Of a stretch of 64,000 nt of DNA, positions 14,192-16,887 are shown one piece after another (within the stretch, counting starts at the first letter, position 1; every line of letters starts with the position of its first letter). A model generated the notes under the pieces. That model did no database searches. It had not been told where the DNA came from and saw nothing but the letters and a program-made list of their open reading frames with translations. A program made the position numbers and the translations under genes. Origin of the DNA: Escherichia coli (lineage in GTDB: Bacteria > Pseudomonadota > Gammaproteobacteria > Enterobacterales > Enterobacteriaceae); NCBI RefSeq assembly GCF_046105845.1, contig NZ_CP151004.1; one strand, 5' to 3'.

Positions 14192-15286
14192 TTACACAAT
14201 TTCGCGGCAGGCGCGATAGAGATCGTTCCAGTCGCTGCGCTCTTTGACGATGGTTTCCAGATATTCACGCCATACCACGTCGTCCTGCACGGGGTCTTTT
14301 ACCACCGCGCCGACCAGGCTTGCGGCAATATCCCGCGGATGCAGTACGCCGTCGCCAAAATGGCCTGCCAGCGCCATACCGTTGTTGATAACGGAGATCG
14401 CCTCCGCGGTGCTGAGAGTGCTGGTTGGCGACTTAATTTTTGTTTTGCCGTCAACCGTCAGGCCGTTTCGTAGTTCGCGGAATATCTGCACGACTCGCTG
14501 AATCTCCTTTAATGCTGGTGGTTCGGCGGGCAGCGCAAGCGCCTGGCCGAGTTCAGCGACGCGGCGAGTGACAATGTTAATCTCTTCTTCTTCGCTGGCG
14601 GGTACGGGCAAAATAACTGTGTTGAAACGACGTTTAAGCGCGGAAGAAAGTTCGTTAACACCTTTATCCCGGTTGTTGGCGGTGGCGATAACGTTAAAGC
14701 CGCGCGTCGCCTGGACCTCTTCATTCAGTTCGGGGATAGGCAGCGTTTTTTCCGACAGGATCGTGATCAGCGTGTCCTGAACATCAGCAGGAATACGCGT
14801 CAGCTCTTCTACGCGTGCAATCTGCCCGCGCGCCATCGCCCGCATCAACGGACTTTCTACCAGCGCCGAACGTGACGGACCTTTAGAGAGCAACTCCGCG
14901 TAGTTCCAGCCATAACGCATTTGTTCTTCACCGGTGCCTGCGGTGCCCTGAATAATTAACGTTGAGTCGCCGCTGATGGCGGCCGCCAGATGTTCAGAGA
15001 CCCAGGATTTCGCAGTGCCGGGTACGCCATACAACAGCAGTGCGCGATCGGTTGCCAGAGTGGCAACGGCAGTTTCGATAATCCGCCGGTTGCCGATATA
15101 TTTCGGCGTGACCTCAAAGCCATTTTCCAGCTGCCCGCCCAACAGATAGGTGGCGACGGACCATGGAGAAATGGCCCAGTTTTCCGGGCGCGGATGAGTA
15201 TCGTTTTTTTGCAGCTCATCCAGTTCTTCAGCAAATTGTTGTTCGGCATGTCGGCGTAAAACGGCGGCAGTAGCGGTGGAAGTCAT
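14192..15286 (-). CDS. MoxR-like AAA+ ATPase
   Basis: Track ORF extends to 15400, but ATG at 15286 has GGAGA SD and ATGA overlap with upstream stop, giving 364 aa; Walker A GVPGTAKS; Walker B-like ARVEEL; MoxR-like sensor region NVIATANNRD. Confidence 0.82.
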   Translation of the reverse strand: MTSTATAAVLRRHAEQQFAEELDELQKNDTHPRPENWAISPWSVATYLLGGQLENGFEVTPKYIGNRRIIETAVATLATDRALLLYGVPGTAKSWVSEHLAAAISGDSTLIIQGTAGTGEEQMRYGWNYAELLSKGPSRSALVESPLMRAMARGQIARVEELTRIPADVQDTLITILSEKTLPIPELNEEVQATRGFNVIATANNRDKGVNELSSALKRRFNTVILPVPASEEEEINIVTRRVAELGQALALPAEPPALKEIQRVVQIFRELRNGLTVDGKTKIKSPTSTLSTAEAISVINNGMALAGHFGDGVLHPRDIAASLVGAVVKDPVQDDVVWREYLETIVKERSDWNDLYRACREIV

Positions 15287-16887
15287 AAAGTAGTTTCTCC
15301 GACAAAAAACGAATGAAGTTGAATTCGGTGCGCCAGCGTGGCGCTCAGGGCAGTAAAGGCTGCCTCGCAATAAGGCGTTTGTTGTGCGTCGTGCGGCCAC
15401 TTTTCAATGACATCATTGAGGACTTCGGGGGCCAGCAGGCAGGCGAAATCACTCATCACATGGCGCAGGGCGTAGTCAAAGCGCGCGGAATCATGTTTCA
15501 CCCAACGGTGCAGCTCCGTGACCATTTGCTGGCTCAGGCGCAGGCTAAAGAGCGACGCATCCGGCGGTAACAGGCTGATGTAGCGATGTAAATGTTCGCC
15601 GCCCACCACTGAGAACAATGACCGTAACATCGGCTCGTGTTCTTCTACAGGCAGACATTGCAAAAGCTCAAAGGCGTTAATCTTCACGCCTGCAGTATGA
15701 TGAATGCTCATTCCGACGGGCAGCATGGCGAGAAACGCCTGCGCCCACTGCGGATTTTTTTCGCGCAGTACGGCGTGATACCAGGCGCGCAGTAGCGCCT
15801 CCTGCCAGTCGGTTTTCCCGGCCCAGCGCAGCAGTTCAACGGGGGTAGCCTGCAGTTGCGTTTGCCACCAGTCGAGCGGAACCGCTGCAACTATCTGATA
15901 CAGCCACCATGCGCGCTGGCCCAACTTTTCGCCTTTGGGCTTAGTTTCTTCCAGCGCATCGGCCTTCCACTCTGGTAAGAACGCCTCCGGGGCATCAAGG
16001 GCGACGCGCAGCGTTTTTTCTCCGCGCAGTAAACCTTTTCGCCGCGCAAGCCAGCTCTCAGGATCGGGGGAGGAATTGAGCAGCGGCGCTAACCTGGACT
16101 TCATGCGCCAGACCCAGGCGCTTTCTGGCAGACAAAGCAGTAATCGTGCCGCAGTTTGCCGCACCTCTTTGCTGCGATCGGATAATGTCTGTTCCAGAAA
16201 GGCTTCGTCGTATTGGGAGATCTCCACTTCCAGCACAGCCAGCAGCTGTGCGCGTTCGCGGGCATCCAGCGAACTCATCTCCTGCGCCAGCCGATCGCGA
16301 CCCTGTTCCGGGGCGCGAATGCGCATTTGCGTCAGATATTGCAGACGCTGTTCGGACGTGCCGTGCAGCCACATTTCTTCATCCAGCGGAGCGTCAACGG
16401 AGGCAAGAAAATAGCGCCAGTCGGCGTTAATCTGCGCCAGCCAGCGCCCGCGAGCGCCGAGGACATTGGGCAGAATGCCGCGTATTGATGGATTTTGTAC
16501 GCCGTAATTCAGCAGTGCCGGTAACAGCAGGGGCGGAGAAAGAAGCTGACGCTGGACCAGGTGATCAAGCGCTGACCACAGTAAACGCGGCGGCCCTTCT
16601 GCCAGCAACAGATGCAGCAGTCCCGCAAAAGCCGGGTTGTTTATTGGCTCGGCATTTTCTTTATCGATTTCCGGCAGCGGTGCGGGGTCAATCGCCTGCG
16701 GCTCCCAGCCAGCCAGATGGCAGAGTGCCAGAACGCCCGCCGAGCGCAGTAGCTGTTGCTCTGCAGATGTGTTATTCGCCAGTTCAGACAGTAGCAGCCC
16801 AATCTCACTTTGCGACGCTGACGGTGTAAACGCTTTTTTGTCTGTGCCGAGTAGCGCTGTGCGGGTTAAATTTTTCCATTCGTTCAT
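15283..16887 (-). CDS. Hypothetical protein, 534 aa (possibly DUF5691-like)
   Basis: Start placed at Met 8 of track ORF (16887): GGAGG SD 8 nt upstream and ATGA overlap with SWIM gene stop; Leu/Ala-rich, no recognised catalytic motif. Confidence 0.7.
   Translation of the reverse strand: MNEWKNLTRTALLGTDKKAFTPSASQSEIGLLLSELANNTSAEQQLLRSAGVLALCHLAGWEPQAIDPAPLPEIDKENAEPINNPAFAGLLHLLLAEGPPRLLWSALDHLVQRQLLSPPLLLPALLNYGVQNPSIRGILPNVLGARGRWLAQINADWRYFLASVDAPLDEEMWLHGTSEQRLQYLTQMRIRAPEQGRDRLAQEMSSLDARERAQLLAVLEVEISQYDEAFLEQTLSDRSKEVRQTAARLLLCLPESAWVWRMKSRLAPLLNSSPDPESWLARRKGLLRGEKTLRVALDAPEAFLPEWKADALEETKPKGEKLGQRAWWLYQIVAAVPLDWWQTQLQATPVELLRWAGKTDWQEALLRAWYHAVLREKNPQWAQAFLAMLPVGMSIHHTAGVKINAFELLQCLPVEEHEPMLRSLFSVVGGEHLHRYISLLPPDASLFSLRLSQQMVTELHRWVKHDSARFDYALRHVMSDFACLLAPEVLNDVIEKWPHDAQQTPYCEAAFTALSATLAHRIQLHSFFVGETTL

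Follow-up and report, generated by a model that had tools for sequence, protein, structure and literature searches.

What is the function of a protein whose gene is translationally coupled on one side to a gene for a SWIM zinc-finger protein and on the other to a gene for an AAA+ ATPase? The question is raised by a gene on the minus strand at 15283–16887 in a 64,000-nt stretch of the Escherichia coli contig NZ_CP151004.1 (assembly GCF_046105845.1), which was analyzed at its full length and which we refer to as the window. The gene encodes a 534-aa protein that we assign to the DUF5691 family, and it is the second gene of a five-gene cassette that, judged by order and domain content, is the E. 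coli-lineage counterpart of the ddrTUVWX operon of Deinococcus. We lean slightly toward the view that DUF5691 serves a MoxR–VWA remodeling machine as a noncatalytic adaptor, in a pair with the SWIM protein. This MoxR–VWA cassette is widespread, every part of it other than the ATPase is without known function, and in Deinococcus it is among the most strongly radiation-induced operons, where the mechanism proposed for it goes no further than "chaperone-like."

The Gene Encodes a Full-Length Member of the DUF5691 Family

The open reading frame (ORF) runs from an ATG at 16887–16885 to a TGA at 15285–15283. A GGAGG Shine-Dalgarno sequence on the same strand (16898–16894) lies 6 nt before the ATG, inside the 3' end of the SWIM gene. 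The ATG and the TGA of the SWIM gene (16886–16884) share the sequence ATGA, as do the TGA of the DUF5691 gene and the ATG of the AAA+ gene (15286–15284). A preliminary description of this DNA, made by reading the sequence, had reported the Shine-Dalgarno sequence, both overlaps, a composition rich in Leu and Ala, and the ORF itself, whose strand it left unstated; the coordinates proved exact, each signal was located, and the protein contains 16.7% Leu and 11.4% Ala. Because it has many homologs and a ratio of nonsynonymous to synonymous substitution rates (dN/dS) of 0.28–0.30 against two E. coli alleles, the ORF is a true coding sequence and not a chance ORF. Scans of the cassette for promoters and terminators and against Rfam gave nothing exceeding background.

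The same description had found no recognizable motif, which holds for inspection by eye only: residues 7–526 match positions 2–489 of the 491 in the Pfam model DUF5691 (PF18944; E value 4.5e-121, 406 bits), a family that the description had itself named as one to search. One search returned 261 homologs, and an exhaustive profile search returned 6124 clusters (50% identity); the family is thus sizeable, and it spans at least six phyla. RefSeq labels E. coli genes that are 92–98% identical as "DUF5691 domain-containing protein." DUF5691 is thus a catalogued, uncharacterized family whose label is already in use for near-identical genes, which makes the gene ordinary from the standpoint of genome annotation. 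No model in NCBIfam, PADLOC, or PHROGs matched the protein, sequence and profile searches of the PDB gave nothing significant for the DUF5691, SWIM, DUF5682, or VWA proteins of the cassette, and the literature library that was searched holds no paper naming DUF5691 or DUF5682.

DUF5691 Is Predicted to Be a HEAT-Like Alpha-Solenoid

An AlphaFold2 model of DUF5691 built on 57 homologs (predicted local distance difference test [pLDDT] score 91, predicted template modeling [pTM] score 0.82) contains approximately 30 helices and two small beta-hairpins. The model predicts an all-helical, HEAT-like alpha-solenoid, which is a noncatalytic fold, and in this it bears out the earlier suggestion of a helical-repeat scaffold. 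A Foldseek search of AFDB50 with the model retrieved members of the DUF5691 family only, with TM scores of 0.95 to B1LGI1 of E. coli SMS-3-5 and of 0.6–0.85 to members from other phyla (25–42% identity). Among solved structures the neighbors are HEAT/ARM proteins only, none of them specific. The likeness is at the level of the fold only, as the Pfam HEAT model (PF02985) gave a single, nonsignificant hit at residues 230–250 (E value 1.5); residues ~227–254 (D..DRSKEVR..AA.LL) resemble a single HEAT-type repeat.

Conservation is central in the protein and comprises GxRGRWLA (144–151), the HEAT-like DRSKEVR..AA.LL (237–250), and LGERAWWLYQ (321–331), whereas the first 100 and the last 150 residues vary. 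Leu, Trp, Gly, and Pro make up most of the invariant positions, as is typical of packing, and some invariant residues are polar (R146, D227, R243, and Q331). These four residues and the position of the gene in the operon are all that speaks for DUF5691 being itself an effector, that is, an enzyme or toxin that the ATPase would switch on, which is one of two roles that the preliminary description had put forward. The all-helical solenoid with HEAT/ARM neighbors only, the packing character of most invariant positions, and the lack of any match to an enzyme family in Pfam, NCBIfam, or the PDB all argue against it, and a better enzyme candidate is encoded in the same operon; we consider an effector role highly improbable. 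Homology to a characterized enzyme family unrelated to the neighboring genes, which had been named in advance as the result that would count against the preliminary proposal, was looked for in the same three resources, and none was found.

A Candidate Enzyme in the Same Cassette

The candidate is the 749-aa DUF5682 protein (11925–14174, minus strand; assigned by Pfam and DdrW-like). Its predicted structure (pLDDT 86.8, pTM 0.80) has an N-terminal TraB/ChaN/EreA-like domain followed by a C-terminal helical domain. Given this structural likeness, we take the N-terminal domain to belong to the TraB/TIKI/ChaN/erythromycin-esterase superfamily, whose members have an alpha/beta fold, N- and C-terminal GxxH motifs, and a conserved Glu and Arg; the fold, the two GxxH motifs, the Glu, and the Arg are all found in the modeled domain. 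The invariant residues are G10, R12, H13, H14, E82, D100, E151, R186, E187, C209, G210, W212, and H213, and they (GxRHH...CGAWH) are kept even in E. coli YehM at 26–27% identity. The homolog search for DUF5682 returned only proteins of approximately 57–60% identity, mostly from Bilophila, which added little diversity. The TraB/ChaN/erythromycin-esterase-like fold of this domain, with a putative active site, is predicted here for the first time. Because of that fold and of the invariant His and Glu residues, DUF5682 and not DUF5691 is the candidate for a hydrolytic effector, if the cassette has one.

Conservation of the Five-Gene Cassette

All genes of the cassette lie on the minus strand. The first (16884–18206) encodes a DdrT-like SWIM zinc-finger protein of 440 aa (Pfam SWIM, E value 1.3e-6) with a CxCx6CxH motif whose ligands C65, C67, C74, and H76 are invariant in the alignment. 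The DUF5691 gene, encoding a positional or distant DdrU ortholog according to Pfam and hhalign, is followed by the gene for a DdrV-like MoxR-type AAA+ ATPase of 364 aa (14192–15286; Pfam AAA_5, E value 1.6e-38), whose closest solved relatives are the AAA domains of midasin and NorQ. The Pfam matches on either side thus agree with the placement between a SWIM and an AAA+ gene originally given. The DUF5682 gene comes next, and the last gene (10766–11935) encodes a DdrX-like VWA protein of 389 aa (Pfam VWA_CoxE, E value 3.6e-52) in which the DxSxS element of the metal ion-dependent adhesion site (MIDAS) reads DQSGS at residue 214.

To describe the context of DUF5691 genes we surveyed one genome per species, which gave relatives in 338 species, and examined 80 loci. 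The SWIM gene is directly upstream of the DUF5691 gene in 78 of the 80 loci, and the AAA gene is downstream in 75. The order SWIM–DUF5691–AAA–DUF5682–VWA is kept in Proteobacteria, Verrucomicrobia, Cyanobacteria, Chloroflexi, and Desulfovibrionales (at least five phyla), and matches on plasmids add Bacteroidota, Actinobacteria, and Deinococcus to the range. No flanking gene recurs among the surveyed loci, which makes the cassette autonomous; a sixth conserved cassette gene was ruled out, as no cluster of flanking ORFs is found in more than six related loci. In 57 of 77 loci the end of the SWIM gene and the beginning of the DUF5691 gene share 4 nt, in 7 others they share 1 nt, and a 4-nt overlap joins the DUF5691 and AAA genes in 41 of 75. 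Furthermore, the SWIM–DUF5691 pair is retained in loci without the other three genes, and in one locus the two are fused in a single ORF of 1048 aa (L084, 1180–4326, from the metagenome-assembled genome GCA_965187755.1) that is followed by the AAA, DUF5682, and VWA genes.

Several loci depart from the common arrangement. The pair stands alone in loci L003, L061, and L077, and SWIM, DUF5691, and AAA genes stand without the other two in L056 and L060, in each case followed by housekeeping genes; the missing genes may be elsewhere in those genomes, or the partial cassettes may be remnants. In L005, L033, L036, L028, L061, L002, and L057, unrelated genes lie between cassette genes, mostly at the AAA–DUF5682 junction. 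These include a PIN/VapC gene with an AbrB-like antitoxin gene, a cytosine methyltransferase gene with a restriction enzyme gene, a Uma2 endonuclease gene, and blocks of 4.5–6.7 kb with histidine kinase genes. Five Verrucomicrobia loci (L010, L012, L016, L021, and L026) have extra ORFs of 240–280 aa at the DUF5691–AAA or the AAA–DUF5682 junction, among which there are two related pairs (L010/L012 and L016/L026).

Evolutionary Rates and Covariation

We compared the rates of the five proteins by pairwise identities in 60 complete cassettes. The median is lowest for DUF5691 (0.36), followed by SWIM (0.47), DUF5682 (0.56), VWA (0.75), and AAA (0.80), and by Kimura distance DUF5691 evolves approximately 5.6 times faster than the ATPase. 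Against the two E. coli alleles, the dN/dS of 0.28–0.30 for DUF5691 compares with 0.01–0.06 for AAA; DUF5691 is clearly under purifying selection that is 5–25 times more relaxed than that on the adjacent ATPase. A role as specificity subunit, which the preliminary description had also put forward, is plausible because DUF5691 is the fastest evolving of the five, the single observation that would suggest it, and helical repeats that serve as scaffolds also evolve fast. In a comparison of the cassette in the window with that of SMS-3-5 (L083), synonymous divergence (dS) is mosaic, with values of 0.15 for DUF5691 and 0.20 for AAA versus 0.03 for SWIM and 0.01 for both DUF5682 and VWA, from which we infer a recombination block that spans DUF5691 and AAA.

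The distance matrices of the five proteins are all highly correlated, reflecting shared history. After the other three proteins were regressed out, DUF5691 retained covariation with DUF5682 (partial r 0.43) and SWIM (0.35) and essentially none with AAA (0.03). Covariation with the SWIM and VWA partners, which the preliminary description had named as a check, was seen for SWIM and was only weak for VWA. Residual covariation is a crude statistic, and we take these values as a hint.

The rates also bear on the possibility that the MoxR–VWA pair has as its client the DUF5691 and SWIM proteins, perhaps joined by DUF5682; the pair would assemble, metal-load, or activate them as a complex, and that complex alone would then perform the actual function. 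AAA and VWA show much stronger conservation than the remaining proteins, as would be expected of a generic engine with a diverging client; the SWIM protein is zinc-dependent, and DUF5682 contains putative metal ligands. Moreover, characterized MoxR–VWA pairs are usually encoded beside the complex that they mature, as is the case for NorQ/NorD with nitric oxide reductase, CoxD/CoxE with CO dehydrogenase, and CbbQ/CbbO with Rubisco. However, the five genes travel as one autonomous unit without any other conserved neighbor, for which reason genomics does not distinguish client from adaptor, and the residual covariation of DUF5691, nil with AAA and weak with VWA, is compatible with either. We regard the client reading as possible but on balance unlikely.

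Relationship to the Deinococcus ddrTUVWX Operon

In D. deserti, the operon Deide_18730–18690 (ddrTUVWX) encodes a SWIM protein in its first gene, a MoxR-like ATPase in its third, and a CoxE-like VWA protein in its fifth; it is induced more than 5- to 10-fold by radiation in a manner dependent on IrrE and DdrO, and its function is unknown (PMC2669436; PMC4007540; PMC5552922; PMC6300522). The RDR motif (radiation/desiccation response motif) precedes ddrTUVWX in several species (PMC5552922; PMC4007540; PMC2669436), and in D. taeanensis an extra gene of 78 codons lies between ddrV and ddrW (PMC9510100). The operon and the cassette in the window have the same five-gene order and domain content, and their AAA proteins are 69% identical. 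The D. taeanensis locus, which is on plasmid p_TS293_3, is annotated as SWIM, DUF5691, AAA, a 78-aa hypothetical protein, DUF5682, and VWA, and its SWIM and DUF5691 genes overlap by 4 nt as in the window. By hhalign, the DUF5691 profile matches D. taeanensis DdrU over 312 columns with a probability of 97.6% (E value 3.2e-12). We therefore consider the gene in the window a distant counterpart of ddrU, though the pairwise BLAST match is weak. On this sequence evidence, we regard the cassette as the E. coli-lineage counterpart of ddrTUVWX and the DUF5691 gene as the equivalent of ddrU.

Distribution and Upstream Region in E. coli

Among 5426 complete E. coli genomes, 33 carry the cassette, in each of them on the chromosome, in single copy, and as an intact five-gene block. 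In the window it lies with its upstream region (10766–18438) between gltD and a remnant of yhcG, and it occupies the same chromosomal site in all carriers. K-12 (L085) has gltF and, as fimbrial-like genes, yhcADEF in the gltD–yhcG interval instead, so that the site has alternative contents among E. coli strains. The gltB gene of the window has a best identity of 98.4% among 5416 complete E. coli genomes. Of yhcG, which encodes a member of the DUF1016/PDDEXK nuclease family, just the 105 codons at the 5' end are left (10260–10574, minus strand); in the region 9750–10574, the rest of the gene, which is present in E. coli 2017-02-2CC, is replaced by unrelated sequence, and in SMS-3-5 yhcG is likewise a fragment.

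This patchy occurrence at one fixed site that replaces gltF–yhcADEF would fit an unrecognized system of defense against phages or other mobile elements, in which the DUF5691 solenoid would sense a protein of the invader. A distribution among phyla that suggests horizontal transfer, the status of DUF5691 as the most variable component, the toxin–antitoxin and restriction–modification genes inserted within the cassette in several taxa, and the DNA-damage induction in Deinococcus, which would suit a response to prophage induction, are consistent with such a system. Other observations argue against it. A search of PADLOC-DB 2.0 left four cassette proteins without a match and gave for AAA only marginal P-loop hits to IetA (E value 1e-3), which are not meaningful, and neither DUF5691 nor SWIM matches a PHROG. 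At 0.3, the dN/dS does not indicate positive selection, and an ATPase that keeps 80% identity across phyla is unusual for defense genes. There are no recurrent defense neighbors, the neighbors in E. coli are housekeeping genes, and the cassette is nearly absent from plasmids and phages. We therefore hold a defense function to be quite unlikely. Only one record in the phage collection, MT835988.1, a 14-kb "Bacteriophage sp." sequence from human faeces, encodes a protein closely related to the ATPase (56.5% identity); this record may be bacterial and not viral, because the identity is equally high for a Fusobacterium vincentii record.

The 232-nt intergenic region between gltD and the SWIM gene (18207–18438), which we presume to hold the promoter of the minus-strand cassette, is identical at 231 of 232 positions in three E. 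coli lineages and has no Rfam match, whereas the adjacent gltD has a dS of approximately 0.19. The near-identity points to strong constraint or to a recent recombinational sweep. The region contains a perfect LexA-box core, CTGT-N8-ACAG (CTGTTACGGAAAACAG on the gene strand; 18273–18288), located 67–82 nt upstream of the SWIM ATG, which is a candidate SOS operator. This exact pattern occurs twice in the window, and each of the three E. coli versions that we compared has the box; as the intergenic region is practically identical in the three strains, its conservation among them is uninformative. No such box was found upstream of SWIM in 75 loci from outside E. coli or anywhere in the 20-kb yeh region of K-12. 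LexA control as a conserved feature of the cassette was accordingly rejected, the exact box being confined to the E. coli versions, and the box is retained as a lead only.

Proposed Role of DUF5691

Taken together, we judge it somewhat better than an even chance that DUF5691 is a noncatalytic adaptor that pairs with the SWIM protein in a MoxR–VWA remodeling machine. DUF5691 would be made in stoichiometric amounts or cotranslated with the SWIM protein, with which it would form a module. Acting as an adaptor or scaffold, this module would dock on DUF5682 and, through it, on the MoxR hexamer with its VWA/MIDAS partner. The MoxR ATPase would provide a pulling or remodeling force, the MIDAS site of the VWA protein would grip an acidic residue of the client, and the TraB/TIKI-like domain of DUF5682 would supply any hydrolytic step, while the SWIM–DUF5691 module would set where or on what the machine acts. 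A ring driven by ATP and a MIDAS grip on the client are the mechanics expected of MoxR–VWA systems and midasin. The regulation in Deinococcus makes a client that arises upon DNA damage plausible.

Several points weigh against this reading. Translational coupling and gene order show coexpression, not binding. The mirror-tree correlations are weak, the pairs that enter them are not independent, and shared phylogeny and saturated rates act as confounders; any solenoid is expected to evolve fast, which leaves a recognition role unproven by rate. The fused SWIM–DUF5691 ORF is weak evidence, because it forms a singleton cluster in a metagenome-assembled genome, and it could be an artifact of assembly or gene calling. 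BLASTP against D. taeanensis DdrU gave only a distant match (E value 7e-4 over 69 residues), and the ERAWWLYQ motif has no aligned counterpart in that protein. Finally, conservation of the LexA-like box does not extend beyond E. coli, and a damage response of the E. coli cassette is a prediction only.

A more specific and rather unlikely possibility is that the cassette is a split "midasin," a remodeling or proteolytic machine responsive to DNA damage in which SWIM–DUF5691 recognizes the target, MIDAS grips it, MoxR pulls, and DUF5682 cuts. Possible targets include proteins caught on DNA or cross-linked to it and stalled complexes, and control would lie with DdrO in Deinococcus and possibly with LexA in E. 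coli. If true, this would be a new class of damage-tolerance system that is testable in E. coli, for example in SMS-3-5. The interest of the cassette lies in its unknown function, its induction by damage in Deinococcus, a tractable host, and the newly recognized DUF5682 domain. It is made approachable by its intact presence in a few ordinary E. coli strains, by a predicted DUF5691 solenoid whose gene is coupled to the SWIM gene, and by a modeled DUF5682 fold with an invariant putative active site.

Comparison with Known Systems

The closest system is ddrTUVWX (Blanchard et al. 2017, PMC5552922; de Groot et al. 2009, 2014), in which DdrU is the product of the second gene. Its published identities among deinococci range from 31% to 82%, mirroring the rate differences that we find in the surveyed cassettes. 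Deinococcus DdrU differs from the DUF5691 protein of the window in that it is 50 residues shorter, is only ~22% identical, and lacks ERAWWLYQ. Control by DdrO and IrrE through the RDR motif is specific to Deinococcus, whereas the only hint of a counterpart in the window is the candidate LexA-like box.

E. coli K-12 has a more distant paralogous system in yehLMPQ. The AAA protein of the window is 41% identical to YehL, DUF5682 is 26–27% identical to YehM, and the VWA protein is 37% identical to YehP. The cassette combines an AAA_5 MoxR-type ATPase, a MIDAS-bearing VWA protein, and a YehM-like DUF5682 protein, which places it with the YehL subfamily of MoxR AAA+ proteins (Snider and Houry 2006, cited in PMC3893208); a chaperone view is taken of the MoxR family (PMC3893208; PMC2669436). 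The yeh cluster also includes a SWIM protein, YehQ, but its gene is last in the order, and YehQ has two SWIM fingers and no likeness to the SWIM protein of the window beyond the finger. The cluster has no DUF5691 gene and instead has genes for WGR and DUF4132 proteins (YehF, YehH, and YehI) upstream. Homology of DUF5691 to YehQ or to YehI (DUF4132) was considered and rejected, as the hhalign probabilities were below 1% and a Pfam scan of YehQ returned SWIM fingers only. In the K-12 region (L082), yehLMPQ adjoin the WGR genes yehF and yehH/molR and the DUF4132 gene yehI, and a study of Deinococcus radiodurans reports that DdrO regulates WGR and DUF4132 proteins and cites regulation of molR by LexA. 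These are hints that both paralogous systems may be tied to DNA damage.

The HEAT/ARM alpha-solenoid adaptors that resemble the predicted fold of DUF5691, for example the AP-1/AP-2 trunk, the PP2A A subunit, the CpcE/F lyases, and symplekin, align with less than half of the protein. They have no counterpart of its two beta-hairpins, GxRGRWLA, or LGERAWWLYQ. RavA–ViaA, NorQ–NorD, CbbQ–CbbO, CoxD–CoxE, and midasin/Rea1 combine an AAA_5 ATPase with a MIDAS-bearing VWA domain, as does the cassette in the window, but they work without DUF5691, SWIM, or DUF5682 partners, and their clients are known enzymes or pre-ribosomes. Compared with these characterized MoxR–VWA systems, the cassette has three extra dedicated subunits.

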